From assembly GCA_964426185.1 (NCBI GenBank), contig CAYRPF010000002.1:41799-73798 (forward strand): a stretch of DNA of 32,000 bases. The letters are read 5' to 3'. Made by a program: the position numbers and the translations under genes. The DNA comes from an uncultured archaeon. GTDB taxonomy: Archaea > Asgardarchaeota > Lokiarchaeia > Sigyniarchaeales > Promethearchaeaceae. Under the pieces are notes generated by a model. The model was not told the origin of the DNA. It saw only the letters and a list, made by a program, of their open reading frames with translations, and did not search any database. Of this stretch, positions 3,266 through 29,103 are shown piece by piece (the first letter of the stretch is position 1; each line of letters starts with the position of its first letter).

Positions 3266-4050
3266 ATTTCGTTTTTTGCTCGTTTTGTTTTTTTTTTCCG
3301 CTTCAAGAAATATTCCCCACGCTGATCACATACTGAAATCAAAAAGCATTGATTACATAAAGGGTGTTTTTTACAAACCCGCACACAATGTTGAACAATT
3401 AACGCGTGAAATTCATTATATATTCTCACGTCGGCAGGAAGATGTGCATGAAACCATGTCTGAAATTCGTGATACGATTGCTTTTCGGAGAAATAACCCA
3501 TGTAAAGAAGCATCCGAACGGTATAGGCGTCAATTACAAAAACAGGTCTTTGAAATCCATAAAGTAAAATTTCATCTGCTGTCTCATGACCGATACCATT
3601 CACCTTGAGCAGATGTAAACGTAATTGGGGGGTTTCATACGATTTCAATGTTGTTATGGGTGTATCGAGCAGCATACGGCAGAGATTTATCAATTTTTTG
3701 GCTTTTTGATTATAATATCCTGAAGATCGTATGGAAATTGCCAATTTTTCAGTTGAAGTGGCCAGTATTTTTTCGGGTGAGAGTAAATGGTTCTTGAATA
3801 GCTGACCTAAAGCTTTATCCGCATTTTCCCAAGAGGTATTTTGGGTTAAAATGGCACCAACCATAATTTCAAAAATATCTTCATCAGTATGCGGATAACT
3901 AAAGTCATTAGGATGGTACCACGTGTTTCTTCCTCGTTCGGTAGGATTATGACCCGCATAGCGAAGACGAATTAGAGGCCACCAACCTTGAGGGCCATAT
4001 TCTGAAAATAACCTCTGAAATAATTCATTCAAAGCTAACAATTTTTTCAC
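3262..4050 (-). CDS. HhH-GPD superfamily (endonuclease III-related) DNA glycosylase with C-terminal [4Fe-4S] motif
   Basis: YGPQGWWP, GAILTQNTSW, HhH GIGHETAD, FVIDAY, EFHALIV, and Cys cluster CVRVCKKHPLCNQCFLISVC. Confidence 0.88.
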   Translation of the reverse strand: MKKLLALNELFQRLFSEYGPQGWWPLIRLRYAGHNPTERGRNTWYHPNDFSYPHTDEDIFEIMVGAILTQNTSWENADKALGQLFKNHLLSPEKILATSTEKLAISIRSSGYYNQKAKKLINLCRMLLDTPITTLKSYETPQLRLHLLKVNGIGHETADEILLYGFQRPVFVIDAYTVRMLLYMGYFSEKQSYHEFQTWFHAHLPADVRIYNEFHALIVQHCVRVCKKHPLCNQCFLISVCDQRGEYFLKRKKKTKRAKNEI

Positions 4051-5156
4051 GGATTTGATAATTTTTTTACCACATAATCAAAACAAATCTTGCACGGATC
4101 TTCATACAGGGCGATTTTTTCTCGAAATGCATCGGTAAATCGATTGGAATCTGGTTCCTGTGCTAGAATTTCGTTTGCACGCATTGCAATTATTTCAGGT
4201 TCTCGAATGTGTTCTAAGGGAAATTGGTTTTTTTGCAGAAAAATTTCTTGCGGGGCTGATTTACCCGGGAAAAATTCTATACTTGGTACACTGAGTAGGC
4301 TGGATTCTCGAACAATAGTTCCACCTCCACTGATTACTAATGCGGAATAAAAGCATAAATCAACAATATGGGGCAGATATTGAGTAATAATAACATTAGA
4401 ATAGTCTTTAAAATCATGTAACTGCTCTCGAAGCCAATTTTCTTGCTTATCCGATCTCACTAAAAGGAAATACGTAAAATTTGGATGCTGGGCATAAATT
4501 TTGGGGAAAAATTGACTGATCAAAGTTTCTTCCGGCTTGAGTTTATTCAGAAAATAGTCCGCAAAAGCTGGCTCGCTCCGAATAAGGACAAAGTTGCCAG
4601 GAGTGACATTGAATTGTTCCAGAATTTTAGGGCGTGGTTGATAATGAGAAAGCCAAGCAATTTCATCAATCCCATTATAACGGATAAATTTGTCTGGATG
4701 TGCATAAATCTCAAGATAATCGGCTAGAGGGATGCATTCGGGCGTAATTACTTGATCCAAAAACGGAAATATTTGTTTAGAAACAAAATAGCTTCGAGGT
4801 TCATCGCTAAAACCTATTGAGGGAATTCCTAATCCCATGGATAGACGAGGGCCTTCTACGGATCCAAAGGTAACGAAGAAATCTGGTTTAAAGGGAACCA
4901 CAACGTCAAATAATCCATGTAATCGTTCAATATATGCTTGCATTTTTCCTTCGATGGTATCTCCTCCATGTTTTCCCACGGGAACATAGGGAATTTGAAG
5001 GTCATTTAATATTTTGTAGGTCGAATCAAAATCACGCGCAGTTATTAAAAGGGTAGCGCCCGCCTCTTGAAAGCATTGAATCATATATTGAAACATTATA
5101 GGGGCTTTTGGTTCTTCTAAGTCTATCCAAATTTTTTTTTGCGAGAGAGGTTTCAC
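4047..5156 (-). CDS. DUF354 family predicted GT-B glycosyltransferase
   Basis: KIWID, ITARD, VGKHGG, GIPSI, YNGIDEIAWL and ISGGGTIVRES are typical of DUF354. Its stop overlaps the downstream start (GTGA). Confidence 0.82.
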   Translation of the reverse strand: MKPLSQKKIWIDLEEPKAPIMFQYMIQCFQEAGATLLITARDFDSTYKILNDLQIPYVPVGKHGGDTIEGKMQAYIERLHGLFDVVVPFKPDFFVTFGSVEGPRLSMGLGIPSIGFSDEPRSYFVSKQIFPFLDQVITPECIPLADYLEIYAHPDKFIRYNGIDEIAWLSHYQPRPKILEQFNVTPGNFVLIRSEPAFADYFLNKLKPEETLISQFFPKIYAQHPNFTYFLLVRSDKQENWLREQLHDFKDYSNVIITQYLPHIVDLCFYSALVISGGGTIVRESSLLSVPSIEFFPGKSAPQEIFLQKNQFPLEHIREPEIIAMRANEILAQEPDSNRFTDAFREKIALYEDPCKICFDYVVKKLSNP

Positions 5157-5233
5157 GCTTAAGAAAAATCTAAATGATTAAAAAATTTATCTTCAAAGAT
5201 TTATTTTAAGAATTGTAGCATAGAGTGATTATT

Positions 5234-5842
5234 ATGGTAGAAGAAACAGACTCTAATAACTCAAAAAAATACACCGTACAAGAACATGCAATTTTGAATA
5301 AACAACCAGTTTATGGACCGAATTCCCATTTTGCAGGTCAAGAAAGGACCCTTCCTCCAACTGAAATCGGAGAAGGCTCAATAATCTGTTCTCAGGCTGT
5401 GGTTTATGCAGGAACTAAAATCGGTAAAAAGGTTTTTGTCGCAGACGGCGCTTCCATTCGAGAAAATGTAGTAATCGATGACATGGCAATCATTGGGCGC
5501 ATGGTAACCGTCGAATGCAATACAAAGATAGGTAAGCGTTCCAAAATTCAAACTGCTGCCCATATAACTGGAGATTGTATTATTGGAGACGATGTTTTCG
5601 TCGGACCAGAAGTTACTACCATGAACGATTTGTACATGGGCGCCCGAGAGACCGAAATGAAAGGACCCATCATCGAAGATGGTGCTTTAATAGGTGGAAA
5701 TGCTACTTTACTTCCTGGAGTTCGAATTGGTAAGAATGCAGTGGTGGGGGCAGGCTCAGTAGTAACGAAAGATGTTCCCGCAAATGAAGTCTGGGTGGGT
5801 AATCCTGCCCGAAAAATTAAAATGCGGGACTGGAACAACTAA
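5234..5842 (+). CDS. Hexapeptide-repeat (left-handed beta-helix) sugar N-acetyltransferase, WbpD-like
   Basis: Multiple [IV]Gxxxx hexapeptides, VFVGPEVTTMND, IGGNATLLPGVRIG, VGAGSVVTKDVP and GNPAR. Confidence 0.88.
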   Translation: MVEETDSNNSKKYTVQEHAILNKQPVYGPNSHFAGQERTLPPTEIGEGSIICSQAVVYAGTKIGKKVFVADGASIRENVVIDDMAIIGRMVTVECNTKIGKRSKIQTAAHITGDCIIGDDVFVGPEVTTMNDLYMGARETEMKGPIIEDGALIGGNATLLPGVRIGKNAVVGAGSVVTKDVPANEVWVGNPARKIKMRDWNN

Positions 5843-5850
5843 ATTTTTCT

Positions 5851-7182
5851 TTAATTTTGTTTTTTTATTTTATTTTGGCGTAAGGTGTGTCTGAAATAAA
5901 TTAAGGTAATTAAATACCAAAGGATCAAGATTACTCCTCCAATTAGTATTCCGAATAACCAATTTACCGGTTTGTCAATAATATATTGGTCGATAATCCA
6001 TAGAAAACCCAAAGCTATAAGTACAAGAACCACCATGATAACGCTGAGCCCTAAAATTTTTGGAAAGAGAGAGATCACCAATAAAAAGGTTAATAAACTG
6101 ATCGAGATTACTCCCAGTATTTTAAATGCATCATAAGGGCCGAAAAAGGGCATCATCGTCAAGGCAACAATTAAACTGATTATTCCTGCAATAGTAGACA
6201 GTCCAAAAATATGATTAACTAATTCTTTTTCACTTAAAGGTCCAGAAGCTGTTAATAGTCGCGGTAATGTAAGGGGTGCGGTTGATTCTTCAGAAGCATG
6301 AATCAAATCGTTTGAATCTAATAGAATATCTTTCTTATCAATTGTATGGCTTTCTTTAAAGCCACGGACGGAGGCAATTACATAAAAACTATTAAAAATC
6401 TGGGGCAGCATCACTAAAATCATAATGGTTTCAATCGAACCAAATATTCCCACCAAAGCTATTGACGCTCCAATCACTAAGGTTCCAGTATCTCCAGGAA
6501 AGATTTTAGCGGGATATTTATTGAAAAAATAAAAAGCACCGATCCCAGCTAAGCAAATATAACCGTAAATAAGACCTTGACTTGATCCCAATAAAAAAGA
6601 TGCCAAAATCATGAAAACTAATGCAATGCTTGTTGTCCCAGACCCTTCTCCATTATACCCTTCTAACATGTTTACAGTGTTGGTCATCACCATAATGATA
6701 ATGGGGATAGTTAGGGGATAAATGATAGTTAATTGTAATCTACCTAAGATGGGCAAAATTGGATTTGAAATTTTAATGAATCCCAGAAAAGGTAAATTTG
6801 CAATAAAAACTGGAAGACCAGTAACAAACATTAATATAATTTTTCTCAAAGAAGATAACTGCTTTCTATCATCGATCCATCCCACCACAGTGGCAATTAG
6901 AATGGTAATAATGAAAATGAAAACTTCATGCCATAATGTAGGTATAATAAACCCGAGCATAATCAATCCAAAGGTAATTGAAATTGAAAAAGCTATTCCT
7001 CCTGATTCTGCAGTTTCTGGACGAGATTGCTTGTGAATATCATACCCCACATATTTTTTTCGCTTCATCCATGAAATAATATAAGGGTAAAGCCAATAAG
7101 TAAAACCGAAAACAAAAAGGCCGATAAGAACCAGTACAACAATTTGATACCATTCTAATTGCAATTGAGAAATACGGATCAT
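5851..7182 (-). CDS. aglH: UDP-GlcNAc:dolichyl-phosphate GlcNAc-1-phosphate transferase (AglH/ALG7/DPAGT1 family)
   Basis: GYDIHK..PETAESGG, GWIDD, NTVNMLEGYNG, FNKYPAKIFPGDTGTL and LTLPRL, with more than 10 hydrophobic segments. Confidence 0.88.
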   Translation of the reverse strand: MIRISQLQLEWYQIVVLVLIGLFVFGFTYWLYPYIISWMKRKKYVGYDIHKQSRPETAESGGIAFSISITFGLIMLGFIIPTLWHEVFIFIITILIATVVGWIDDRKQLSSLRKIILMFVTGLPVFIANLPFLGFIKISNPILPILGRLQLTIIYPLTIPIIIMVMTNTVNMLEGYNGEGSGTTSIALVFMILASFLLGSSQGLIYGYICLAGIGAFYFFNKYPAKIFPGDTGTLVIGASIALVGIFGSIETIMILVMLPQIFNSFYVIASVRGFKESHTIDKKDILLDSNDLIHASEESTAPLTLPRLLTASGPLSEKELVNHIFGLSTIAGIISLIVALTMMPFFGPYDAFKILGVISISLLTFLLVISLFPKILGLSVIMVVLVLIALGFLWIIDQYIIDKPVNWLFGILIGGVILILWYLITLIYFRHTLRQNKIKKQN

Positions 7183-7263: not shown

Positions 7264-7926
7264 TTAAAAATCTTGCTCTATAAGAGGGACAGCGAAGATT
7301 TCCCAAATGGGTCGGTTTTCTAAGTTCACTTTCCTGATTACACGAGTTAACTGCCGGTGATAAATCTCAGGAATACTCGTGAACAAAATATCCAAGATAT
7401 TTACTCCTCCTGAAATCTTTTCCATTAACGGAACGATCCATTTCTGGGGTATTTTTGCGTATATTCCTTCAATGAGAATTAATTTCTGATATAATTCCAA
7501 AGTTTCAGAGCCATATTTATCGATAAGGTTATCAATGTTCGGTTTAAATGCCTCAAAATCAGCTGTACGATAAACTCTTTTTTCTTCACCCTTATGGAGT
7601 TCATTCTCATATAATTCTTCAAATTTTTCAGTAATTTCCTGAGCCATACCGGATAAAATGGGTTCGATCATGTAACCTAAAGGCATTGAGTAATTGATCA
7701 TTAAAACCGAAAAAACATAATTTCCTGGGCTGAACCGTGCTTCTAAACTCCCTGACCGAATTAAAGAAACTCCTTCTGGAAAACCAATTTCTTGGGCAAA
7801 TCCATTAAGAGCCGTTAAAAATCCTCCTATTAGTTGATCGCGATTAGTTTGATCACTATTAATAATATCGTATTTGTGCAAAAGGGTTCCAGTTTTTGTA
7901 ATAATATAGATTTCTACGAGCACCAA
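7264..7926 (-). CDS. Longin-fold protein (Asgard type) with additional C-terminal helical region
   Basis: N-terminal beta-hairpin IYIITKTGTLLHKY, helix QLIGGFLTALNGFAQEI, three short strands, then helix AQEITEKFEELY. This fits the beta-beta-alpha-beta-beta-beta-alpha-alpha longin pattern. Confidence 0.7.
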   Translation of the reverse strand: MVLVEIYIITKTGTLLHKYDIINSDQTNRDQLIGGFLTALNGFAQEIGFPEGVSLIRSGSLEARFSPGNYVFSVLMINYSMPLGYMIEPILSGMAQEITEKFEELYENELHKGEEKRVYRTADFEAFKPNIDNLIDKYGSETLELYQKLILIEGIYAKIPQKWIVPLMEKISGGVNILDILFTSIPEIYHRQLTRVIRKVNLENRPIWEIFAVPLIEQDF

Positions 7927-7998: not shown

Positions 7999-9150
7999 CT
8001 ATCCTTGTTCAGAAAAGTAATTCAATAAGGTTTCAGCTACAAAGTAAATCTGCTCATCTGTCATGCTGGATACCATTGGAATTTCAAAATGATGCCTTGC
8101 AATATATTCTGCATTCGGACATTTAGTTTTTGAATAATCCGGATAATCCACCACTCTTGCCATATGATATTCATGAATATTCCGATAGGCGGGTTGTTCA
8201 TAGGAAAGAATCGAATAAATTGTTCGAGAACTGATATGGTGTGTTTTTAAATAACTAATTAAATCTTTTGGAGTGGAAAGAGAATTCTTAATTACAGGAG
8301 CCATGATATAATCTGAAATTTGATGTCCTGGAAGAATTTTCTGAAGACGTATGTTCTCTTCTTCTCCTAATATTTTACGATATAAATCTCCGTTTCGATG
8401 ACGGCGGGCTAAAATTTGTTTTGCTCGTTCCATCTGAACATTCATTATTGCTGCAGACATGTCGGTTGTGCGGTAATTATATCCGATTCGATAATGGGCG
8501 TATCCTCCTTGAGGATTTCGGCCGTGGTTTTTAAGACTTTGAATTTTTTCATAAATTTCATTAGAATTACACACAACCGCGCCCCCCTCCCCTCCAACCA
8601 GATTTTTCGTTCCATAAAAAGAGAAAGCTGCTACATCACCAAAATTTCCTACATGCTTTCCATTAATTCGAGAATCATGCGCCTGTGCACAATCTTCAAT
8701 GACGGAAAGATCATTTTTTTCCGCGATTTCCATGATCTCAAGCATATTGCAAGGATTTCCAAAAATATGTACTGGCATGATTGCTTTTGTTTTTTCTGTA
8801 ATGGCCGCTTCAATTTTGGAAGGATCAATATTGAATGTTTCTGGATCAACATCAACAAAACGAGGTATGGCTCCATTGAACAAAATACTGTTGGATGAAG
8901 CAATAAAGGTAAATGGAGTGGTAATAACCTCATCTCCTGGACCGATGTCCATTGCTGTTAAAGCTAAATGTAATGCACTCGTGCCATTAGTAGTTACCGA
9001 AACAAATTTACTCCCGGTAAAAAGGCTGAATTTTTTCTCAAATTCTCGTGCGTTTTTACCTTCTATTAAGTGGCGACTTTTTACAACTTCCTCTACAGCT
9101 TGAAGTTCTCGGTCAGCAATATTTACATCAACAACGGGAATATCTTTCAT
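7999..9150 (-). CDS. DegT/DnrJ/EryC1/StrS family sugar aminotransferase
   Basis: TNGTSALHLAL, GDEVITTPFTFIAS, IMPVHIFG, IEDCAQAH, PLP-lysine FSFYGTKNL, GEGG and IGYNYR. Confidence 0.95.
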   Translation of the reverse strand: MKDIPVVDVNIADRELQAVEEVVKSRHLIEGKNAREFEKKFSLFTGSKFVSVTTNGTSALHLALTAMDIGPGDEVITTPFTFIASSNSILFNGAIPRFVDVDPETFNIDPSKIEAAITEKTKAIMPVHIFGNPCNMLEIMEIAEKNDLSVIEDCAQAHDSRINGKHVGNFGDVAAFSFYGTKNLVGGEGGAVVCNSNEIYEKIQSLKNHGRNPQGGYAHYRIGYNYRTTDMSAAIMNVQMERAKQILARRHRNGDLYRKILGEEENIRLQKILPGHQISDYIMAPVIKNSLSTPKDLISYLKTHHISSRTIYSILSYEQPAYRNIHEYHMARVVDYPDYSKTKCPNAEYIARHHFEIPMVSSMTDEQIYFVAETLLNYFSEQG

Positions 9151-9257: not shown

Positions 9258-10496
9258 ATGGAAAAGTTAACTCAGCAAAAATTACATAAGAATTATCTCG
9301 ATCTGCTTCAAATTTTGCAAAAAGATTACAATATTGAAGATTTATCTCGATTAGATTTAACTTGTAGAGAACATGAAGGTGAAGCAACTGTGGTGGCTTT
9401 TCCGATCCAAGGGGTACTTAAATATCACGGAATGAGAGATCCCCAAGAGCGAATTGCTTATTTTTCCAGTATTTCTCTTAATAATGGTGCCGCAGCAACT
9501 ATCACTTATATACATCTTTCAAGAAAACGTGCTACTGATATTCTAATCTTGAATGGGACTGAAGTAAAAGCCGATTCCCAAATTTTTCAACGAGTTAAAT
9601 ACCAACTTGAACAAATCCGCAAAATCACTAAGTTATCCAGCAAAGCGTTAATTATTAGTCGTAATGTTTATATTTCACAGAATTCCCCCTTAAACTTCAA
9701 GGAAGTAAAAGAAAAAGGCTTAGGTACTTCTGCATCTGCAGGAGCAGCGATTGCTGCAGCAATAATGCACATCATTTATCCCTCTGATTCAAAAATACGA
9801 GATCATGATCAGGTCCGCAGTATTTTTGCTCGATTTTTAGCGGGGAGTGCAGCTCGAAGTGCCACTGGTGGATTCAGCCTTTGGGTTTCTCATCCCCTCG
9901 CATCATCATGGGAGTCATTCAGTATTCGATTAGATCTGTCCAAAGATGAACCTTTTATTCAAGAATTATCACTTCTTACAATACCAATAAAATCATCGTT
10001 GAAAACAGAGCATGCTCATAAAAGTGTTCTTAAATCTCCTTTTTATGAACCTTGGCTTAATACTCGAGAGGATAAGATTGAAGAATTTATTAAGGCTCTA
10101 CGTGCTCATGATTTCAATAAAATGGGGGAACTTATGGAAGAAGACACACTGGCTTTGCATGCTGTTTCAATGACAACCGGGATTGCAGACTATATTTTAG
10201 CGTGGGAACCAGAAACCTTATCTATCATGAAAAAAATTAGGAATCTTCGCACAATGCACCATCTTCCTGTGTATTATTCCATAGATACAGGTCCTACAGT
10301 TGTAGTTTTTACTTTAGCATCTGAAGAAGAAAATGTGATCAGAAAGATGAAAGAAGAGTTTCCATCCCTTCCTATTATCCAGAGTAAAATTCAAGGCTCT
10401 CCCCGAATAATCCATCCACAATCTAGAGAATATCAAACTATTCAAGCAGATATCTCAAAATTTAAGAAAATAGAAAATGATAATAAACATCGATAA
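9258..10496 (+). CDS. mvaD: Mevalonate-phosphate decarboxylase, GHMP family; most likely phosphomevalonate decarboxylase (PMD)
   Basis: AFPIQGVLKYHG (PMD-type, not IALIKYWGK of diphosphomevalonate decarboxylases), SISL, KGLGTSASAGAA, AGSAARS and YSIDTGP. Confidence 0.85.
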   Translation: MEKLTQQKLHKNYLDLLQILQKDYNIEDLSRLDLTCREHEGEATVVAFPIQGVLKYHGMRDPQERIAYFSSISLNNGAAATITYIHLSRKRATDILILNGTEVKADSQIFQRVKYQLEQIRKITKLSSKALIISRNVYISQNSPLNFKEVKEKGLGTSASAGAAIAAAIMHIIYPSDSKIRDHDQVRSIFARFLAGSAARSATGGFSLWVSHPLASSWESFSIRLDLSKDEPFIQELSLLTIPIKSSLKTEHAHKSVLKSPFYEPWLNTREDKIEEFIKALRAHDFNKMGELMEEDTLALHAVSMTTGIADYILAWEPETLSIMKKIRNLRTMHHLPVYYSIDTGPTVVVFTLASEEENVIRKMKEEFPSLPIIQSKIQGSPRIIHPQSREYQTIQADISKFKKIENDNKHR

Positions 10497-16939: not shown

Positions 16940-16956
16940 ATAGAGGAAAAACGCGA

Positions 16957-17886: not shown

Positions 17887-17899
17887 AAGGTGTTTTAAA

Positions 17900-19782: not shown

Positions 19783-19858
19783 GTTCTCACCTATAACAAT
19801 AACTTTATCTAAAAATTCATTGCTATATATAGTATATTGAAGCGCGAAGTAATAAAAA

Positions 19859-20593
19859 ATGGGATCAGAGCAAATAAACATACCTTTTTCATTTGAACAA
19901 TTGGCTAGCTTTCTCTTAAAATCACCTTATATTACTATGGTATGGGGAGATGTTGGTGTTGGAAAAAGCACGTTCGCCCTACAGATTGCAAAAATAGTCG
20001 TAAAATCTCATAAAAAAAAAGTATTTTATTTAAACACCAAAGAAACTTCCAATTTTTCTATTATCTCCCGGATTTTCGAAATTCCGATATCAGAGTCTTC
20101 AACTTCACAAGGTGATGAAATACCCTTCTTCTGCTTTCAAAAAAACACGGTTCAGCAGCAGTTTGAATGTATTTCTCAATGGCTCTTACAAATTCAGCAG
20201 CATTTTCGCCTTTTTAATGAAATTTCTATAGGATTAATTATCGTGGATGAAATTTTCAGCAATTACTTGATCGAGCTGCGAAAAGAGCAGACAAATGAAA
20301 AACTCAATCGAAAAATGGCGCTAATTTTGGCAACTCTAAGGCAATTGGCAGCAAAGTTCAATATTCCAATTCTTTTAATCAATACATTTAGCATCAAAGA
20401 GCATCCTGAAACTAAGCAACTTGTCGCCACTCCTCATGGAGGAAAGATTCTAAATTTCTGGGTCGATGCGGAACTTAAAGTGACGCGCTCGTCTCTTTTA
20501 CAAGTAATAAATTTCAAAGTAATAAAAGCCCCGTTTTCTACCTTTGTTCCTTTAAATTGGAAATGGAAGTTGAGCGAAACAGGTTTCATCTAA
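19859..20593 (+). CDS. RadB-like RecA/RadA paralog (ATPase core only)
   Basis: ITMVWGDVGVGKST (Walker A), VFYLNTKE, LIIVDE (Walker B), IPILLIN and PHGGKIL..W. Confidence 0.75.
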   Translation: MGSEQINIPFSFEQLASFLLKSPYITMVWGDVGVGKSTFALQIAKIVVKSHKKKVFYLNTKETSNFSIISRIFEIPISESSTSQGDEIPFFCFQKNTVQQQFECISQWLLQIQQHFRLFNEISIGLIIVDEIFSNYLIELRKEQTNEKLNRKMALILATLRQLAAKFNIPILLINTFSIKEHPETKQLVATPHGGKILNFWVDAELKVTRSSLLQVINFKVIKAPFSTFVPLNWKWKLSETGFI

Positions 20594-20594
20594 G

Positions 20595-21839: not shown

Positions 21840-21885
21840 AAAATTTAGAATTCATCCCGATTTTAAATCATTATCTATTAAATAT

Positions 21886-22545
21886 GTGGGAAATTGGATG
21901 GGAAGCAAAAAAAATCCTTGGTTAAGTAAGCAAAAATCAGATCCTTATTATAAGCGAAGTAAGAATGAACATCATAGGGCGCGTTCATATTATAAACTTC
22001 AAGAAATCGATCGAAAATATCATATCTTGTCTGTTAATGGGCGATTTCCAAAAAAAATATTGGATTTGGGAGCAGCACCCGGTGCTTGGATAGAATATAC
22101 CTCGAATCAGTATCAATCTTTGCCTGAGAAACAACAATCCAAGAAGTTTCAAATTGTGGGAATTGACTTAACTTCTATTCGACCATTTTCTGAATTACCA
22201 AATATTAAATGTTTCCGAATGGATATTTTCAAGCCAGAATGTGAAGCGTTTATACAAGAATCTTCACCTTGGGATGTGATTCTTTCTGATTTAGCCCCCA
22301 AAACCGCAGGAGATTTTCGGGATGTCGCAATTCAAGAATCAATGGTACAAAAAGTGCTCTATTTTACCCGTTATCTGAAGATCGGAGGAAATATAGTAGT
22401 AAAAATATTTCAGAGTGATCAATCAAATGTTATTTTCGAGAAGTGGAAACCCGCTTTTCGATTATTTAAACGAATGAAGCCCTCCGCATCCAGACCAAAA
22501 AGTCGAGAGTTATATTTTATCGGAAAAAGTTATATTGGTTTGTAA
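21886..22545 (+). CDS. rlmE: RlmE/FtsJ rRNA 2'-O-methyltransferase
   Basis: DPYYK, RARSYYKLQEID, LDLGAAPGAW, ILSDLAP, VVKIFQ and PSASRPKSRELY (K-D-K-E tetrad). Confidence 0.93.
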   Translation: MGNWMGSKKNPWLSKQKSDPYYKRSKNEHHRARSYYKLQEIDRKYHILSVNGRFPKKILDLGAAPGAWIEYTSNQYQSLPEKQQSKKFQIVGIDLTSIRPFSELPNIKCFRMDIFKPECEAFIQESSPWDVILSDLAPKTAGDFRDVAIQESMVQKVLYFTRYLKIGGNIVVKIFQSDQSNVIFEKWKPAFRLFKRMKPSASRPKSRELYFIGKSYIGL

Positions 22546-22558
22546 AAAAGCCATTAAA

Positions 22559-23221
22559 TTACTTTGAAATTTTATCTGCTGGTTTCACTTTTTTTGAATC
22601 AAAAATTTGATGAAATGGATTACCCATATAGGGTTCTCCATCAATGGAACATAACAGCCAGTCAGTTAAATATGGGCACTTTTTGGGATTATATTGCTTT
22701 TGACCTTCATTACATTTCTTTGTGTAGGGACAGATAAAACAAGGTAAATCATTTAAGGTATCCCAAACGAGTTTTCCTGTCTTAGTTTGTTTTTTCGGGG
22801 TAATTCCAAAATCATCAATTTTGGTAATTTGATTAACCCAACGAGATTGGTACATGACTAAATTGGTCCGAATTTTAGGTGGATCTTTCGCTAGCAGTCG
22901 TTTGATGGATTTTTCTAATTCTTCAAGGGAAATTTTCAATTTTTCTTGGAGTTCATCCATCACTAACGAATAATTAGGTGCATTGGTTAAAGTCATCAAA
23001 ATTTGCTTATCAGTTGCAATATAATTAGTTTTTTTGGTTGGAGCTTTTTTAGGGGTTTTAGGTGGTTTTTCAGCCGAAACTTTTTTTGCTACTTTTGTTT
23101 TTTTTGAAGAATTTACTTTTTTTTTAGAAACTTTTTTTTTTGTGGTAGTTTTTTTAGATTTCTTAGCAGTTGAAGCTTTTTTCTTTTTAGAAGCTTTTGT
23201 TGTTTTCTTTTTAGCCACCAT
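22559..23221 (-). CDS. RPC34/TFE-beta-like protein (winged helix plus [4Fe-4S] domain) with Lys-rich N-terminal extension
   Basis: The C-terminal PCFICPYTKKCNEGQKQYNPKKCPYLTDWL matches the RPC34/RPC39 Cx2Cx5Cx10-11C..WL motif. The central KQILMTL..MDELQEKLKISLEELEKSIKRL is wHTH-like. There are 29 Lys in the first 64 aa. Confidence 0.8.
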   Translation of the reverse strand: MVAKKKTTKASKKKKASTAKKSKKTTTKKKVSKKKVNSSKKTKVAKKVSAEKPPKTPKKAPTKKTNYIATDKQILMTLTNAPNYSLVMDELQEKLKISLEELEKSIKRLLAKDPPKIRTNLVMYQSRWVNQITKIDDFGITPKKQTKTGKLVWDTLNDLPCFICPYTKKCNEGQKQYNPKKCPYLTDWLLCSIDGEPYMGNPFHQIFDSKKVKPADKISK

Positions 23222-23307
23222 ATTTTTTAAATAAATATTCCAAAACTAAAAAAATTTTTTATTGTGTATTTTAATAAATCATTGATAAAGAATTCGGAAT
23301 TAATCAC

Positions 23308-24300
23308 ATGAATCTTGTAAAAAATCCACAACTCAACCCTCAAGAAGTTAAGGAATTGTTGAGTTCTGATATCGGAGAAATCCTTACCAACAAAGAAGTT
23401 CAAATCTTAGAGCATAAATATAGTTCACAAGATTACAACCCGAGTCGTGTTTCTCTTCAGTTTGCGCGAGTTAAACAAAAAACAAAAGCAATTCAACCGT
23501 TGTTACTGCAAAAGATTGTCTCTGAGAAGAACCGATGGTGGTTTTTAACGGGTTTGGATTTTTTGGATTCAATATTTGCCAGTTCTTATAATCTTAAACC
23601 TGGATTAGCTTCGAATTCTTTAATAATGGTTTATGGAAAAGCACGCTCTGGTAAAACTCAAATCTGTCAGACAATCCCCGTCAAGTATTACCGGAATTTC
23701 TTTTCCCAGACCAAAAAGTCTCATAAATTTGTGCTATACATAGATACCGAAGGAACATTTCGCCCTAACCGTATTAAGGAAATTGCACAGTTTTCTAAAC
23801 TGGATGGAGAGCAAATTTTAAATCAAATAATCTCCGTCACTGCCCAAAATTATTCCCAATTCAACATGTTTCTTAAAAAAGTGGAAGATATTTTCAAAAC
23901 TCACCCAATTCGGTTATTATTGATTGATTCCTTCACTCGAATTTATCGATTGGCCATGGCAGAATCTCCGCAAGATACTCCCTTAATTATTTCCAATATG
24001 GCGCAAAATCTCAGGAAAATTCGAAATTGGGCTCAAAAATATAATCTTTTTGTATGTTTAACTTCTCAAGTTTCAAGTCGTCTTGATGAAGGGCATTTTT
24101 TCGAAGTTTCCCCCATTTTAGCCACCACTTTAAACCGCTATATAAAATCTTGGATTATGCTTGGAATTAATGATTCTGAAAATGAAATAAGAGGGATTTC
24201 TGGACTTCGCTATGCTCATGTCATCAACAGCGATTGTCAACCCGAATCCATTGTAAAATTTTTGATCACAGCTCGTGGATTGGAAAATTACTATGAGTAG
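23308..24300 (+). CDS. RadA/Rad51 paralog
   Basis: TGLDFLD, VYGKARSGKTQIC (Walker A), LYIDTEGTFRPNRI, LLLIDSF (Walker B), LTSQV and FLITARGL. Confidence 0.85.
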   Translation: MNLVKNPQLNPQEVKELLSSDIGEILTNKEVQILEHKYSSQDYNPSRVSLQFARVKQKTKAIQPLLLQKIVSEKNRWWFLTGLDFLDSIFASSYNLKPGLASNSLIMVYGKARSGKTQICQTIPVKYYRNFFSQTKKSHKFVLYIDTEGTFRPNRIKEIAQFSKLDGEQILNQIISVTAQNYSQFNMFLKKVEDIFKTHPIRLLLIDSFTRIYRLAMAESPQDTPLIISNMAQNLRKIRNWAQKYNLFVCLTSQVSSRLDEGHFFEVSPILATTLNRYIKSWIMLGINDSENEIRGISGLRYAHVINSDCQPESIVKFLITARGLENYYE

Positions 24301-24386
24301 CGTACAAATCAACTGCTTTTTTTTCGGTCCAATTCAAATTGTTTGTTCAAAAAGGCTTAAATTTAATTTTTAGTTTTTAAAAGTTG

Positions 24387-24857
24387 ATGAGCGATAATCT
24401 GCAATTACAAGTAGGTAAAAAAATTCCTTGGATTTTTGGGTCGAAAATGCGAATTCCAAAGGTAAATTATCCAATGTATCAAGATTCTAAAATGAATTTA
24501 CCCACTCCTGGAAGAAGCTTTATTTTATTAGTTATATACTTAGTATTGTTTTGGTTAATGATGGGTGGAATTTATATTTCAATTCGTAATCCAATTCCAT
24601 TGGGATCATCGGGCCAAAATAATGTTTTATGGCTTTATCCGTCAACCAGCGAGGCATTTATTATTGAATCTGTCGTGGCTGCAACTTTAATGTTTATTGG
24701 GGGCGCAGGTTTCTTAATGCTGTATAACTCCACCAAACATGCATATAATTACAGTTATAGCATCAAGTTATTAATTATCGCAATTGCGGCGATAGCTTTG
24801 AGTTTTGGATTACTTCAATATATGATCGCTGTGAAATCAGGGGATTTACAACAGTAA
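24387..24857 (+). CDS. OSTC/DC2-like (OST3/OST6 family TM domain) oligosaccharyltransferase accessory subunit
   Basis: Three TM segments. GGIYISIRNPIPLGS, AFIIESVVAATLMFIGGAGF and the last TM align with the DC2 pattern GGIIYD...PPSVGS / [20 protein letters not shown]. No thioredoxin domain. Confidence 0.78.
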   Translation: MSDNLQLQVGKKIPWIFGSKMRIPKVNYPMYQDSKMNLPTPGRSFILLVIYLVLFWLMMGGIYISIRNPIPLGSSGQNNVLWLYPSTSEAFIIESVVAATLMFIGGAGFLMLYNSTKHAYNYSYSIKLLIIAIAAIALSFGLLQYMIAVKSGDLQQ

Positions 24858-24909: not shown

Positions 24910-26070
24910 CTATTCAACTCGTATTATATTGTATTCTCCAAAATCTACTAAAACCCGATGCAATCCTCGGAACTTTTTATCAAACTCTTTATCCCGTGAA
25001 TCAATTCGCAGTTTACCTTGTGGCAAGGTGGAAACTTTGAATTTTGTTGCAATTATCTGTACGTTTTTCAAGCCGATTTGTTCCAATACCTTAGGGCTTA
25101 ACTGCAGATTTCCCCGACCAAAAACAAAACCTTGTGCTCCAATTGGCGTAACTACCAACTTTACATTTCGATCTTTGGTTTGAGCAATTAATTCTTCCTC
25201 GTTTAAATCTTTAGCCACAATTTTTTGGCGATAGTATAAATCAACTCCCAACAAGGTTTTCGGTTGTTTTATTTTTTGTGCAATGGCTCGGGTGGTGGTG
25301 CCAGGTCCCAATAAATAGTACCAATCGGGATAAGTATTTTCCCACTCCATTAAAATCCACTCTGCTATTGAAGCTTGGTTGGCAAATTCTTCTTCAGTGT
25401 GCGGACTGGCCATTTTAGAAGGTTGCGAAAGGGTGGGGGAATATGGAACTTTCAAATAGCCGTATAGTCGAGATACCACACGATTATGGCGGAATTCTTC
25501 TTCATCAATATCCAAAACTTCGGCTTCTCGCAGGGGTATTTCATTATTCAAGTATTTTAACACTAATTCTGCAGCTTTTTCAGGATTGACCGCAAACACA
25601 GAAGAATGAATTTTAACCCCCCCGGGTATTCCCAAACAAGGAATTTCTAAGTCCACACTCTTACATATATCCCGTGCGGTTCCATCTCCTCCGATGAAAA
25701 CCAGCAGATCTACCGGAATCACTTTCATCAATTGAGCCGCCCAAACGGTATGCTGTGCGGTAGTCTGAAAAAGTTTAGTATTTTGTATTCGAGAATCTTG
25801 CAAATATTCATAAGAGAAGGGAAAATTTTTCAGAATCTGTTCGCCCATGATGCCTTGAACGGTAATAAAATGGATTTTTTCTTGAATTGGTTCTAGATGT
25901 TCCAAAAATTCTTTTGCTCGTTGCGGGGATTGAATCTGCGCATGATGAAGTAGAGCCTGCTTAATTACTTCTTCACCATCAGAACCTTTCATTCCAATTT
26001 TGCCACCCAATCCTGCGATGGGGTTCAGAATAAAACCTATTTTTTTCTTGCTAAACACTGTTTGTTTCAT
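24910..26070 (-). CDS. ATP-NAD kinase family protein
   Basis: IGFILNPIAGLGG..GMKGSDG, GGDGTARD, GIPGGVKIHSSVFA, GPGTTT, TLLGVD and TPIGAQGFVFGRGNLQLS. Confidence 0.85.
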   Translation of the reverse strand: MKQTVFSKKKIGFILNPIAGLGGKIGMKGSDGEEVIKQALLHHAQIQSPQRAKEFLEHLEPIQEKIHFITVQGIMGEQILKNFPFSYEYLQDSRIQNTKLFQTTAQHTVWAAQLMKVIPVDLLVFIGGDGTARDICKSVDLEIPCLGIPGGVKIHSSVFAVNPEKAAELVLKYLNNEIPLREAEVLDIDEEEFRHNRVVSRLYGYLKVPYSPTLSQPSKMASPHTEEEFANQASIAEWILMEWENTYPDWYYLLGPGTTTRAIAQKIKQPKTLLGVDLYYRQKIVAKDLNEEELIAQTKDRNVKLVVTPIGAQGFVFGRGNLQLSPKVLEQIGLKNVQIIATKFKVSTLPQGKLRIDSRDKEFDKKFRGLHRVLVDFGEYNIIRVE

Positions 26071-26124
26071 TTCCTTTTTTCCGAAAATTCAAATCAATGC
26101 AATGCATACTTTTATTTGAAAATT

Positions 26125-26928
26125 ATGGCCATTGTTCCATTTTGGGTAGATTTTCCCCCATTCCGTCCCTTGTTTAAAGAAATTTGTCAGAAGTTTGGAT
26201 TCGAAATGGAACTTGAAATAGAAGCACGCAATTTTTTATATCATTATCTTCACCATTCTGATCCACAGGGGTTAGTTGAAGAAATTACCCATTCTGCGAA
26301 TAGAAAAATAATTTGTTTTATTGGAGCAGGACCGAATTTGGTTTCACATATTCAGAAAATACGGCAAATGTGGAACGCTCAGCGGGATCGATTCTATCTT
26401 GTGGCAGCTGATGGGAGTGCGAATGCCCTTATAAGAATTGATCTTTATCCAGATCTCGTCATTTCTGATTTTGATGGTTTATCTGTGCAGCAAATGCAAT
26501 TTTTGCTACAAAAAGGGGCAATTCTATGTTTACTGGCCCATGGAGATAATTATACCCATATTGAAGGTTATCAATCTTTATTATCATCCGATTTACGTGT
26601 GATTGGAACAACACAAGCTCCCGCGATGTATCCAATCATCAATCCTGGTGGTTTTACAGATGGAGATCGAGGGTTATTTCTAATGCATCACCTTCTTCAA
26701 TTGGATCAGCCTTTTTTTCTCTTTGGCTATGCATTCGAAGGGCCGATCGGGGCCTATTCTAAACCTAATTTCGATCAAGATATGCCGCTAACTCCTTTTA
26801 AAAATAAAAAATTGCAAGTTTGTGAACATCTCCTTCACCTTCTTTCCAGCCGTTGGCACCGACAAATTCTTTTTTTCGATGAAGATGAAGTAGAACAAAA
26901 GATACGCTGGCTCATATTTTCTTCATGA
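26125..26928 (+). CDS. mptE: 6-hydroxymethyl-7,8-dihydropterin pyrophosphokinase, MptE-like
   Basis: IGAGPNL, VAADG, PDLVISDFDG, AHGDN, GTTQ, NPGGFTDGDR and K..KL. ATG at 26125 avoids overlap with the divergent gene. Confidence 0.82.
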   Translation: MAIVPFWVDFPPFRPLFKEICQKFGFEMELEIEARNFLYHYLHHSDPQGLVEEITHSANRKIICFIGAGPNLVSHIQKIRQMWNAQRDRFYLVAADGSANALIRIDLYPDLVISDFDGLSVQQMQFLLQKGAILCLLAHGDNYTHIEGYQSLLSSDLRVIGTTQAPAMYPIINPGGFTDGDRGLFLMHHLLQLDQPFFLFGYAFEGPIGAYSKPNFDQDMPLTPFKNKKLQVCEHLLHLLSSRWHRQILFFDEDEVEQKIRWLIFSS

Positions 26929-26979
26929 ACCCACAGCTTTTTTTGATTTCGCCTCCTATTTTTATATAACGGTGGAACT

Positions 26980-27282
26980 ATGGTTGAACCAGAAGAAGAT
27001 ACCTCCAGTTGGAAATCATTGAAAAAAATGATTAAAAAAAGCGTTACAGAGGTAAAGAAAAAAATTAAAGAGTATTCACAAGAAGGAGAACCTGGTTTTA
27101 AAAAAATATCACCTCTTTATGGGCAAAAACGGAAAATTATTTCCGAACCTGCACCTCCAAAAGAATATAATTGTCCCTTTTGTCATTCTCCCCTATCCGA
27201 TGAATTGATAAATATTTTAAAGGAGCACAAATCTATCATTTGTGAACGCTGTGGAAGTAACCTTCAATTATCCGATTTTTAA
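26980..27282 (+). CDS. Small zinc-ribbon protein of unknown function
   Basis: CPFC..CERC at the C-terminus and a basic N-terminal helix. Confidence 0.7.
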   Translation: MVEPEEDTSSWKSLKKMIKKSVTEVKKKIKEYSQEGEPGFKKISPLYGQKRKIISEPAPPKEYNCPFCHSPLSDELINILKEHKSIICERCGSNLQLSDF

Positions 27283-27391
27283 TCGGAAAAAAAGCAATTG
27301 GTTTTTATGGAAGATTACTTTGTTTCTTGCATAAGGAGATTGCCTCCTTTTAGATGATCTCTCCTTTAAAAATAATTAAAAGTTGATTACT

Positions 27392-27742
27392 ATGAGCAAA
27401 GATAAAACTTTTGGACTGATAATTTTGCTATTAGGCTTCTTGATGATTATATTCTATATCATCTGGGCGCCAATGTCTCTTATTTACGATATGTCAAATG
27501 GCCAAAGCCTCTCAGGATTAAGTGGTCTTTATGACATCGGCTTTTTCAGCTGGAAATGGGCTTTAGTTATTCCGATGACTATTATGGTATTACTCATTGG
27601 AGCCTTAGCCGCTTGGATTGGATATAGCATGATTTCTACTCCACCCCCAGTTCCTTTAGAAGAACTTGAAGAGGAATTAGAAGCTGAAGAAGCTGCTAAC
27701 GCTGAATCTGCAGAAAATGAAGAAGAATCCTCAAACGAATAA
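27392..27742 (+). CDS. Two-TM protein resembling DPM2/PIG-P, with acidic tail
   Basis: DKTFG..FYIIWAP / WALVIP..WIGYSMISTPPP followed by a Glu-rich tail. The CDS is clear; the family call is a manual alignment. Confidence 0.62.
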   Translation: MSKDKTFGLIILLLGFLMIIFYIIWAPMSLIYDMSNGQSLSGLSGLYDIGFFSWKWALVIPMTIMVLLIGALAAWIGYSMISTPPPVPLEELEEELEAEEAANAESAENEEESSNE

Positions 27743-27827
27743 ACTAAAATTCTAATATTGTAATTGAAGTTTTTTTTTAATAAATTCCCAATATCTATTT
27801 TTTTTCAATTTTTCAAAATGAAGGAAA

Positions 27828-28280
27828 ATGCAGAAACATATTTACGGGCAAATTTGGGGCATTCTTCAGCTCGGTTTTTGGTTGATTATGATTCCATGGA
27901 TCTTGATTGCGATTCCAGGAGATCTTTGGGTAGATATGGTCATCAAGATGAATCCAGAGCGGGTTCCAGAAGGTGTTCAAGAATTTTTTCAATCCCAATG
28001 GGTTGATTGGCGAACCGGTTTAGTAATACTTGGGATTTTTTATATGCTCTTAGTAAGTATTGCTTTGATTTGGGTAGGTTGGCATAAACTTCATCCAATT
28101 TCAATGTCTTCAGATATTCCGCCTGAAAAAATTGCGATGGATCGATTTCATGCCGTTCAAAGTTTTTCAAAAGAGGCATACTTAAAACAGCTTAGGGAAA
28201 AAGCCCATATCTATCGCATGGAAGGCAAACACGGGTTATTTAAAGAGCGAAAGCGCAATAAAAAGTCAAAAAAATATTAA
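27828..28280 (+). CDS. Two-TM protein, probable paralog of the upstream gene (PIG-P/DPM2-like), with basic tail
   Basis: HIYG..IPWILIAIP / WRTGLVIL..LIWVGW has the same two-TM layout as 27392-27742. It ends KERKRNKKSKKY. Confidence 0.5.
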   Translation: MQKHIYGQIWGILQLGFWLIMIPWILIAIPGDLWVDMVIKMNPERVPEGVQEFFQSQWVDWRTGLVILGIFYMLLVSIALIWVGWHKLHPISMSSDIPPEKIAMDRFHAVQSFSKEAYLKQLREKAHIYRMEGKHGLFKERKRNKKSKKY

Positions 28281-28317
28281 TAGCTAGTAAAATTTACTTT
28301 TTTGGTTAAATTTCCAG

Positions 28318-29103
28318 TTACTTCTCTGCGTTATTTGAATTAGAGGTATTAGGGGAATTATATCTGTTTGGATTAAATAAACGCGTAATATCTTCCTCGT
28401 CAAAGGTACCAGTATATGTTTCTTCTAAGATCACCCATTCACTGGCTGAAGGATTGATGATAGTGTGCTTTGATCCCAATGGAATGTGAAATTCTTGCTT
28501 GGGAGATGTTTGAAGATATACCTTCGAGCCTACAATGATTATCGGGTGCCCTTGTTGAATTTTCCAGTGTTCTTCTCGAAGTTGATGTGTCTGTAGACTA
28601 ATTCCCAGACCGGGTTGCAAGAAAATGAGATTGAAACTGGGATATGTGAACTTAATGGAATACCATTTTGCTAAGATATCAGTGTATCCTGTTGGAACGG
28701 AAAATTGGGAAAGAATTTTGGAAGGATCAATTGTTTCATGGGGTTTGTTTTCCAATAAATAGGGATTATAAAGAATTTTAAAAATTTTTCCCAATTCTTC
28801 TTTTCTTTCTTTTTTTCCTTCTCCTTTTTCATATCCACTAATTTTTACTTCCACTTCGATTGTCACTGAGGTGAGATTCATGATCATAAAAGCCGCTTTG
28901 GGTGGAACTAGGAGCATATACCCATCTGAAACTCGAAGACCCATATGATTAATGGGGGCGATTACATCTTCGATAATGGCTAAAATTCCACCTAAATTTT
29001 CCCAAGCGGGAGAATCTACCAAATGAATGTAAAGTTTAGTGTTTTGATCCCCATTTTGCCAAAGATTTGTTCCACGTCCAGAAGAAAGAGTCCAATATAC
29101 CAT
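28318..29103 (-). CDS. Cupin protein with type II mannose-6-phosphate isomerase-like C-terminal domain
   Basis: ISLQTHQLREEHW, IPLGSKHTIINP and E..TG..DEEDITRL match the PMI domain of ManC/AlgA. Confidence 0.75.
   Translation of the reverse strand: MVYWTLSSGRGTNLWQNGDQNTKLYIHLVDSPAWENLGGILAIIEDVIAPINHMGLRVSDGYMLLVPPKAAFMIMNLTSVTIEVEVKISGYEKGEGKKERKEELGKIFKILYNPYLLENKPHETIDPSKILSQFSVPTGYTDILAKWYSIKFTYPSFNLIFLQPGLGISLQTHQLREEHWKIQQGHPIIIVGSKVYLQTSPKQEFHIPLGSKHTIINPSASEWVILEETYTGTFDEEDITRLFNPNRYNSPNTSNSNNAEK

Follow-up and report, generated by a model that had tools for sequence, protein, structure and literature searches.

A probable mosaic of polyprenol-carrier glycosylation modules in a Lokiarchaeial genome, with a tentative link between ALG7-type and ribophorin I genes in Asgard archaea

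The 32,000-nucleotide stretch of DNA studied here (the window; G000:C2:41799-73798) stems from the 3.26-Mb genome, assembled into 155 contigs, of a Loki-type Asgard archaeon. About 25 kb of it hold genes for the synthesis of polyprenol carriers and for loading sugars onto them, among them the gene for an ALG7/DPAGT1/AglH-like polyprenyl-phosphate N-acetylhexosamine (HexNAc)-1-phosphate transferase (GPT). An earlier note on this DNA had interpreted these 25 kb as a single supercluster leading from carrier synthesis to glycan transfer. Our analysis points to a different reading, which we consider probable: the region would be a mosaic of three separately conserved polyprenol-carrier glycosylation modules that lie, together with housekeeping genes, inside an inherited gene order and that were joined in one sub-lineage of the source family; it would not be one selected unit. 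The general theme of polyprenol-carrier glycosylation is supported. As a tentative but serious possibility, we further propose that the Asgard ALG7/DPAGT1 homologue and Ost1/ribophorin I form an ancient, rearrangement-resistant gene pair accompanied by acetamido-sugar tailoring enzymes. Ribophorin I would then have acted in N-glycosylation before eukaryotes, the beginning and the end of the pathway would be genetically coupled, a UbiA-DUF362-PHP-flippase branch would supply dolichyl-phosphate pentose, and the window would represent a derived state.

Gene content and gene order of the region

All 34 non-overlapping open reading frames (ORFs) of the window were scanned against Pfam, and 26 of them against NCBIfam. 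Every gene named in the earlier note lies where it had been placed, 11 of its 13 gene calls pass family models, and the gene content it had described is confirmed by the two collections. Gene identities, synteny and linkage counts are computed results, and the enzyme activities given throughout are predictions from homology. In window coordinates, the genes of the three modules are as follows.

4047..5156, minus strand: DUF354 protein with a GT-B fold, member of the GPT module (PF04007, 128 bits)
5225..5842, plus strand: hexapeptide-repeat sugar N-acetyltransferase of the NeuD/PglB/VioB type (PF00132; TIGR03570 107 bits, below the cut-off of 160.8)
5851..7182, minus strand: GPT (PF00953, 97.4 bits against a cut-off of 27, residues 88-247)
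7264..7926, minus strand: Asgard-specific protein of 220 aa with a longin/roadblock-like N-terminal domain, between the DegT and GPT genes
7999..9150, minus strand: DegT/PseC/LegC-type sugar aminotransferase (PF01041, 378 bits)
9258..10496, plus strand: MVD-family decarboxylase, first gene of the mevalonate operon (PF22700 and PF18376)
10523..11695, plus strand: class II HMGR (TIGR00532, 433.9 bits against a cut-off of 259.95)
11692..12675, plus strand: mevalonate kinase, MVK (TIGR00549, 230 bits against a cut-off of 163)
12566..13513, plus strand: isopentenyl phosphate kinase, IPK (NF040647, 197 bits against a cut-off of 120)
13528..14286, minus strand: cis-prenyltransferase (cisPT), a polyprenyl/dolichyl diphosphate synthase (PF01255, 217 bits; TIGR00055, 201.7 bits against a cut-off of 109.55)
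14372..16939, plus strand: membrane M48 (HtpX/Ste24-type) metalloprotease of 855 aa (PF01435, HELGH motif)
16957..17886, plus strand: UbiA-family polyprenyl-phosphate 5-phosphoribosyltransferase-like enzyme (PF01040, 60.3 bits against a cut-off of 34.2)
17900..19084, plus strand: DUF362 protein (PF04015)

In the designations used below, G000 is the source genome, G001 and so on are its relatives, and C, f, g and L stand for contigs, families, genera and loci. The order of the source organism includes its own family f1, f2 and the sister family f3. A first set of relatives was anchored on the decarboxylase gene, with up to ±30 kb fetched in 16 genomes and searched by tblastn with all 34 window proteins. 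For a second set, 41 relatives were searched with GPT, cisPT, UbiA and the oligosaccharyltransferase (OST) 3/6-family protein of the window, and 11 regions, eight of them from f3, were then fetched; a phylum sample comprised 151 genomes. ORF calls were crude, the comparisons of GPT-OST3/6 and cisPT-HMGR distances were made by eye, and the genomes entering all linkage counts are related and are therefore not independent samples.

Within f1, the block with all its unrelated genes keeps colinearity over its full length in G002, of the same genus, and in G010 and G011, of two other genera, as well as up to the end of the contig in G007. In G001, also of the same genus, colinearity reaches Trm1 and then breaks, with OST3/6 about 107 kb from GPT (a list of colinear genomes elsewhere in the analysis includes G001). 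In the f1 genera g3 and g4 and in f3, the mevalonate genes and cisPT occur with each other only, away from the GPT-UbiA block; GPT, UbiA and OST3/6 often share a contig in f3, with the mevalonate genes elsewhere. The eight f3 regions follow the order DUF354-GPT-M48-UbiA-DUF362-unknown 259-aa protein-RadB-like-Trm1-FtsJ-Lys-rich protein-RadA-like-MptE-NAD kinase-OST3/6. This f3 block also carries ribophorin I and Sec61beta, and the mevalonate/cisPT genes, DegT and the cupin of the window are not part of it.

Across these eight regions, the 13 claimed pathway genes are kept in 35 of 104 gene-by-genome cells and 13 other genes in 71 of 104, in a comparison that favours GPT, UbiA and OST3/6, as the regions were chosen to span them, and that under-counts 27383-29103, as the regions end near OST3/6. 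For a baseline, five f3 contigs (82-126 kb) were compared with the G000 proteome by reciprocal best matches on crude ORF calls. Most shared runs comprise one to three genes, the longest is an 18-gene ribosomal-protein operon, and the M48-to-MptE run of seven to nine genes is among the next longest. The stability of the block is thus unusual but not specific to glycosylation genes. Candidate linkages outside the order were rejected: 20 same-contig pairs of GPT and OST3/6 are at best 44 kb apart, the closest GPT-UbiA pair is separated by 53 kb, and GPT and cisPT approach each other to 12 kb in G065 and are otherwise at least 42 kb apart when on one contig (for example 42-48 kb in f9 and 57-60 kb in f14).

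The single supercluster of the earlier note does not survive these counts, nor the missing linkage outside the order. The note had also reasoned that a coincidental cluster should be scattered in related genomes. In that simple sense it is not scattered: gene order is conserved across the family and mostly across the order, in a manner not specific to the pathway genes. Most likely, the juxtaposition of the modules is a rearrangement specific to genera g1, g5 and g6, with the mevalonate/cisPT cassette between GPT and M48 and ribophorin I about 0.9 Mb away.

In G000, the only matches to the GPT, cisPT, UbiA and OST3/6 queries, together with one strong DegT match, all fall into the window. The enrichment of such genes is real, and the window was selected post hoc; the genome-wide counts cover five families and gave six GT2 matches, seven GT1 matches and one real DegT. 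The earlier note rightly recorded that AglB, IDI and HMG-CoA synthase are absent from the window: AglB (1350 aa) is encoded on C27, HMG-CoA synthase (541 aa) on C23, and IDI2, next to a trans-prenyl synthase gene, on C24. A possible agl cluster around AglB was rejected, its neighbours being genes for an MFS transporter, GH57, rubrerythrin and GH116. On C64, at about 8-16 kb (L111), G000 has its main glycosyltransferase cluster, in which three GT1 genes and one GT2 gene accompany an RmlA-like nucleotidyltransferase and an RmlD-like reductase and adjoin genes for two very large proteins (910 and 1589 aa) without a family match.

The GPT gene and ribophorin I across the phylum

A search of PDB sequences places GPT closest to human DPAGT1 chains (E 8e-16 to 4e-15), with the best MraY at 2.6e-6 and WecA not among the matches, and both the Pfam score and this ranking agree with the placement of this gene in the ALG7/AglH family by the earlier note. 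GPT is found in 41 of 41 relatives and in 143 of the 151 genomes of the phylum sample, with one match in nearly every genome; the G000 protein has a C-terminal membrane extension of about 100 aa (443 aa against open frames of about 340 aa in most other families). By its sequence, GPT should transfer HexNAc-1-phosphate to dolichyl phosphate, and the tailoring genes next to it point to a modified HexNAc as its possible donor. Genes of the Alg13/14 or Agl24 type were not seen in the window.

In every f3 region, a three-gene run adjoins DUF354/GPT, and this run maps in G000 to C8:14773-18178, where Pfam identifies a Trm112-like protein, a 606-aa ribophorin I homologue (PF04597, 29 bits against a cut-off of 25), Sec61beta and MazG. 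With the G000 protein as query, ribophorin I was found in 128 of the 151 phylum-sample genomes. Outside the order, GPT and ribophorin I are both present in 95 genomes and on the same contig in 53, and in 48 of these 53 they lie less than 10 kb apart, at start-to-start distances of 1.2-5.3 kb. The linked genomes belong to six of the 20 families scored (f9, 24/24; f14, 13/13; f15, 2/2; f18, 3/3; f21, 5/5; f28, 1/1), and the five unlinked same-contig cases, 162-489 kb apart, to f5, f7 and f24. In f3 the two genes are linked at the same threshold in 25 of 26 cases. Of the 22 families in which both genes are present, seven show the pairing.

The arrangement of the pair varies. The two genes are adjacent and divergent in f9, f21 and f28, one to five genes separate them in f14, f15 and f18, and within the order they have been shuffled in several ways. 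G004, a member of f1, keeps them 3.5 kb apart; in G001, G010 and G011 they lie 0.87-0.97 Mb apart, and in G000 they are on different contigs (C2 and C8). The source genus has lost the link. According to the annotation of six of ten loci (80 of 95 ORFs scanned), the genes that join the pair are mostly sugar-nucleotide or glycosyltransferase genes: DUF354 (f18, f21), the hexapeptide acetyltransferase (f14, f18), a GFO/IDH/MocA oxidoreductase (f14), GlmU-like nucleotidyltransferases (f15, f21), and GT1, GT2 and PMT_2 proteins together with a Wzx-like flippase (f15, f18). In f9 and f28, the ribophorin I protein encoded beside GPT (L080:9577-12540, L083:8460-11516) has about 1000 aa, with FKBP_C and Big_7 domains on its N-terminal side. 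A literature search of full texts, supplements lying outside it, returned no mention of the GPT-ribophorin I pairing, and none was found in the accessible text of PMC11417166, PMC8993221, PMC10307638 and bioRxiv 10.1101/2025.10.15.682550.

Two of the tailoring genes of the window thus recur at this locus: DUF354 adjoins GPT in f3, f18 and f21, and homologues of the acetyltransferase adjoin ribophorin I/GPT in f14, f18 and some f3 genomes. A structural model of the DUF354 protein (pLDDT 91, built from a 17-row alignment) matches best in Foldseek the UDP-GlcNAc and UDP-2,3-diacetamido-glucuronate 2-epimerases (template modelling (TM) score 0.62-0.72), with glycosyltransferases ranking lower, a sequence search against the PDB gave a single match at E 0.72, and the literature yielded only unrelated DUF354x names. 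As modelled, the fold would be most like that of a sugar-nucleotide 2-epimerase. Of the sugar-modifying set in the earlier note, the DegT enzyme (the sole strong DegT match in a search of G000 itself) and the acetyltransferase stand; the DUF354 protein, which the note had taken for a glycosyltransferase, lies nearest to 2-epimerase folds. The 220-aa protein encoded between DegT and GPT has no match in Pfam or NCBIfam, its Atlas structure rows name Fuz_longin_1 and Sybindin (TM score 0.51-0.53), and it is syntenic only within f1.

The ribophorin I gene of G000 is part of a second glycosylation-type neighbourhood (C8, about 8.3-18.2 kb; L110, L073). In addition to the Trm112-like, ribophorin I, Sec61beta and MazG genes, it holds those for a PIG-L-family deacetylase (BshB1 model at cut-off), a GT2 enzyme closest to the polyprenyl-phospho-HexNAc synthase PpgS, and a PHP phosphoesterase.

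The UbiA and mevalonate modules and the remaining genes

M48, UbiA and DUF362 form a tight run on the plus strand (14372-19084) with gaps of 17 and 13 nt. The UbiA protein scores 185.5 bits with NF008977, under the cut-off of 234, and its best solved relative is a decaprenyl-phosphate phosphoribosyltransferase (8j8j, E 1e-25); the Pfam match agrees with the UbiA type named in the earlier note, and the enzyme would be a candidate for the second prenyl-phosphate-loading step proposed there. UbiA occurs in 36 of the 41 relatives, and at E ≤ 1e-20 it is restricted to this order and to f9, f24 and f28 (60 of 151 genomes). DUF362 is the best-conserved protein of the block, with 86% identity within the genus and 60-64% in f3. 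A DUF362 profile search of PDB sequences returned nothing below E 0.049, and the Atlas gave only other DUF362 clusters.

Eight UbiA loci from outside the order were fetched. DUF362 directly adjoins UbiA in all six of the f9 and f28 loci, and in the three of these that were annotated (G107, G065 and G137; 53 of 64 ORFs scanned) genes for a PHP phosphoesterase and an LPG_synthase_TM protein come next after UbiA-DUF362. Both f24 loci, from one genus, have a homologue of the PIG-P-like protein of the window beside UbiA instead (E 1e-13 and 9e-9). No GT-C enzyme and no epimerase of the DprE1/E2 type was seen near UbiA. The DUF362 gene beside UbiA in G107 (f9; L098:9820-11382) carries an intein (PF14890, 68.7 bits) inserted within its DUF362 domain. 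M48 adjoins UbiA in f1 and in four of the eight f3 regions; about ten membrane segments make up the N-terminal side of the protease, its C-terminal extension of about 390 aa has no family match, and its 17-nt gap to UbiA is translationally tight.

In the mevalonate operon, HMGR, MVK and IPK pass their equivalog cut-offs, as the earlier note had led one to expect. The phosphomevalonate decarboxylase (PMD) named there is present as an MVD-family decarboxylase that reaches none of the NCBIfam equivalog cut-offs (among four MVD-family models, MvaD, NF040704, scores best, with 166 bits against 475); it is probably a phosphomevalonate decarboxylase. Since the family match of IPK begins at residue 45 and its first codons overlap MVK, the true start of this gene probably lies later than 12566. 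The immediately convergent cisPT gene described earlier is indeed there, 14 nt from IPK, and it passes TIGR00055 and is the single cisPT match in G000.

cisPT adjoins the mevalonate genes in 11 of the 16 fetched contigs, and the remaining five contigs, only 3-8.6 kb long, end first. In genera g1, g5 and g6 it flanks the operon at IPK, whereas g3, g4 and f3 have it at the other end, and it lies less than 6 kb from HMGR in 19 of 23 f3 genomes and in both f1 genomes compared. A linkage outside the order was rejected, as all seven same-contig pairs of the phylum sample are at least 62 kb apart. The module of mevalonate operon and cisPT is therefore conserved order-wide only.

The f3 operons (63 of 101 ORFs scanned) read IPK-MVK-(MVD-like)-AcnX small subunit-AcnX-UbiD-HMGR-HMG-CoA synthase (HMGCS) with a divergent cisPT, the MVD-like gene being present or not. 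In nine f1 genomes outside g1, all those with searched regions, HMGCS adjoins the decarboxylase and no AcnX/UbiD is found there. In G000, no AcnX rises above cut-off, tblastn detected neither AcnX nor UbiD genome-wide, and the MVD-family decarboxylase replaces AcnX/UbiD. Because AcnX/UbiD are missing from G000 and none of its five GHMP kinases matches the phosphomevalonate kinase model at E 1e-10, the decarboxylase and IPK are the likely route to isopentenyl diphosphate (IPP) in this organism. A second MVK-like GHMP kinase gene on C45 at about 1.7-2.7 kb (L107:545-1528; TIGR00549 147 bits against the cut-off of 163) could bear on the lower route that is used. In three f3 genomes (G021:C36, G025:C1 and G036:C146; L010-L012, L020-L024), an eight-gene operon HMGCS-MVD-like-HMGR-UbiD-AcnX-AcnX small subunit-MVK-IPK with a divergent cisPT unites both lower mevalonate routes, possibly as an intermediate between them.

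The other genes of the region are the following.

19102..24300: interspersed genes for an unknown 259-aa protein, RadB-like, Trm1, FtsJ, a Lys-rich protein and RadA-like (Pfam and NCBIfam), with no evident link to glycosylation
24384..24857, plus strand: OST3/6-family protein, 157 aa, three transmembrane segments (PF04756, 33.8 bits against a cut-off of 27)
24910..27282: NAD kinase, MptE-like kinase and a small zinc-ribbon protein (Pfam), unrelated to glycosylation
27383..28280, plus strand: two small proteins with two transmembrane segments each, the first (27383-27742) weakly PIG-P/DPM2-like
28318..29103, minus strand: cupin with the C-terminal domain only of type II phosphomannose isomerase, PMI (PF01050, 36.5 bits)

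The six interspersed genes of the first entry are each kept in eight of eight f3 regions, as is MptE; NAD kinase is kept in three of eight. The OST3/6-family protein matches positions 182-290 only of the 294-position profile, that is, the C-terminal membrane part. It has no thioredoxin domain and no match to a thioredoxin family, and its three hydrophobic segments resemble the architecture of OSTC/DC2, its sole PDB matches (6s7o_H at a weak E of 0.002, residues 48-150 against 33-141 of 149). The OSTC/DC2-like subunit of the earlier note is accordingly a fair call, if a weak one. The protein is present in 39 of the 41 relatives and in 137 of the 151 phylum-sample genomes.

The DPM2/PIG-P-like call fell below both Pfam cut-offs (PF08510, 28.9 against 39.3; PF07297, 21.3 against 27.3), and the resemblance is weak. 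The PMI-like cupin does have the C-terminal PF01050 domain; it is not a full-length type II PMI (GMP_PMI; TIGR01479, 37.7 bits against 373), and it is the first gene of the 18-gene ribosomal-protein-operon block (C2:70116-83579), which is conserved in the f3 genomes G015 and G031. Hence, the cupin travels with ribosomal genes and not with glycosylation genes. In the mosaic reading, inherited synteny would account for the place of this gene, and of those for the OSTC-like and PIG-P-like proteins, in the window.

Alternative explanations and known systems

The following scheme would accommodate the three modules. DegT, the acetyltransferase and the epimerase-like DUF354 protein may tailor an acetamido sugar nucleotide into a modified UDP-HexNAc, the 1-phosphate of which GPT, by homology, would move onto dolichyl phosphate at the cytoplasmic face. 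HMGR, MVK, the decarboxylase and IPK are predicted to provide IPP by the phosphomevalonate-decarboxylase route, and cisPT, again by homology, would extend it to the polyprenyl diphosphate from which dolichyl phosphate derives. UbiA is predicted to load 5-phosphoribose from phosphoribosyl pyrophosphate onto polyprenyl phosphate, and the product would presumably be dephosphorylated and flipped, giving a lipid-linked pentose donor on the outside. AglB, encoded elsewhere, would transfer the glycan, and ribophorin I and the OSTC-like protein may assist it. In the accessible text on a cultured Lokiarchaeial relative, its N-glycans are linear; their linking sugar, of 304.13 Da, is an unusual HexNAc derivative, and the second sugar is a pentose (PMC11284389). 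These glycans are in keeping with, but do not prove, the use of a tailored HexNAc by GPT and the supply of pentose by the UbiA module.

Among the alternatives, we rate as unlikely that the modules are real and, in place of protein N-glycosylation, serve a different glycoconjugate that depends on polyprenol, for example a glycolipid, an O-linked glycan or a polysaccharide of the cell surface. PNPT and DPPRS-type enzymes start many bacterial pathways that are not N-linked, as set out in the available part of PMC11127046; AglB and OST3/6 are on different contigs in 21 of 21 f3 genomes having both; and the glycoproteome paper, as far as its text could be consulted, describes dispersed agl genes and only one heavily glycosylated protein (PMC11284389). 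Set against this are the greater proximity of GPT to eukaryotic DPAGT1 than to MraY, its tie to the Ost1/ribophorin I gene in six families outside the order, the single GPT match in nearly all genomes searched, and the HexNAc derivative and pentose in the N-glycans of the relative.

The proposal of the earlier note, that the whole 25 kb are a loose but selected supercluster kept by a shared N-glycosylation pathway, appears to us quite improbable. It can draw on the concentration of the sole GPT, cisPT, UbiA and OST3/6 matches and the strong DegT in a genome poor in glycosyltransferases, on the GPT-to-OST3/6 run being among the longest syntenic runs common with f3, and on the presence of ribophorin I and Sec61beta in the f3 block. 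Yet the unrelated genes are kept better than those of the pathway, the mevalonate/cisPT module is elsewhere in f3 and in g3 and g4, the same-genus genome G001 has OST3/6 far from GPT, as are OST3/6, UbiA and cisPT outside the order, and AglB, IDI2, HMG-CoA synthase and the main glycosyltransferase cluster lie on other contigs. We give least credence to the idea that only the mevalonate operon is functionally organised and all other adjacency is ancestral order frozen in slowly rearranging genomes: it would explain why GPT-OST3/6 distances are constant within families (100-127 kb in f9, 44-63 kb in f14), why GPT and cisPT are 42-48 kb apart in 10 of 11 same-contig f9 pairs (12 kb in G065) and why unrelated genes recur around GPT in several families, but GPT and ribophorin I stay 1-6 kb apart while order, orientation and intervening genes change, the genes that join them mostly concern sugar nucleotides and glycosyl transfer, and UbiA-DUF362-PHP-LPG_synthase_TM is a coherent pathway set.

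The mosaic of three modules has observations of its own to contend with. Gene order is kept order-wide as far as OST3/6 at protein identities of 30-45%, which is unusual and could reflect selection for co-location; OST3/6 is only 1.8 kb from GPT in G014 (f2), and AglB is 17 kb from OST3/6 in G011 and 33 kb in G010. The PIG-P-like homologue beside UbiA in one f24 genus leaves room for a functional tie of some apparent singletons. Across families, the GPT-ribophorin I locus also keeps Trm112-like, MiaB-like radical SAM, ThiS and MutS-like neighbours that seem unrelated, and long-lived adjacency alone is consequently no proof of shared function. The kinship of the sampled genomes, stated above for the linkage counts, weighs in the same direction.

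Asgard OST-subunit homologues are known as sequences and from a few localisation and binding experiments. The pairing of ribophorin I with an ALG7-type gene is genomic evidence of an independent kind for a connection of ribophorin I with glycan assembly, and it names candidate partners, namely DUF354, the acetyltransferase and the Trm112-like protein. If the proposal is true, ribophorin I was committed to N-glycosylation before eukaryotes arose. The UbiA-DUF362 module is a concrete candidate for the source of the pentose in Lokiarchaeial N-glycans. At the same time, long-range synteny in these genomes can mimic a functional supercluster, a point that matters for the reading of other Asgard neighbourhoods.

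The comparison with known systems bears on the description of the region as ER-like (resembling the endoplasmic reticulum). This label suits GPT, with its likeness to DPAGT1, and the OSTC-like protein; the UbiA branch and the genes for sugar tailoring look archaeal or bacterial in type. Membership in the Pfam family OST3_OST6 links the 157-aa protein to eukaryotic OST3/6 (TUSC3/MagT1) and OSTC/DC2, and its only solved relatives are the OSTC chains of the human OST-A complex. In contrast to OST3/6, it is short and lacks the thioredoxin domain, and its neighbours are NAD kinase and RadA-like genes, not OST genes. Homologues of eukaryotic OST accessory subunits in Asgard archaea are already in print, as the accessible parts of three papers document (PMC10307638, PMC11284389, PMC11417166).

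The mevalonate operon, with MVK, IPK, class II HMGR and an MVD-family decarboxylase in one unit, resembles the haloarchaeal-type route (MVK, phosphomevalonate decarboxylase, IPK), and the f3 operons, with AcnX, its small subunit and UbiD, resemble the archaeal route through the AcnX dehydratase and a UbiD-type decarboxylase. The available text of PMC6107057 mentions that Asgard archaea have a class II HMGR. Unlike these variant pathways, the decarboxylase of the window fails all equivalog cut-offs, some f3 genomes hold both routes in one operon, and cisPT is attached to the operon throughout this order and nowhere else in the phylum sample.

Three-component pentofuranose addition, for which mycobacterial DPPRS (Rv3806c) is the prototype, comprises a polyprenyl phosphoribose synthase with a phosphatase, a flippase and a GT-C enzyme, according to the portion of PMC11127046 at hand. 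UbiA of the window is homologous to DPPRS, and f9 and f28 add a PHP phosphoesterase and the flippase-like LPG_synthase_TM protein. The Asgard module differs in that its phosphatase is of the PHP type and not HAD or PAP2, and in having DUF362 as a constant partner; in the window itself UbiA is flanked by M48 and DUF362 only, and a PHP gene of G000 is on C8 beside ribophorin I.

The GPT module, finally, is like archaeal agl clusters and the ALG7 (DPAGT1)-AglH step in that a PNPT enzyme closest to human DPAGT1 stands beside sugar-nucleotide tailoring enzymes, to which other Asgard families add GT1 and GT2 genes and a Wzx-like flippase. It is unlike agl clusters in that it is not centred on AglB: the constant neighbour of GPT phylum-wide is the Ost1/ribophorin I homologue.

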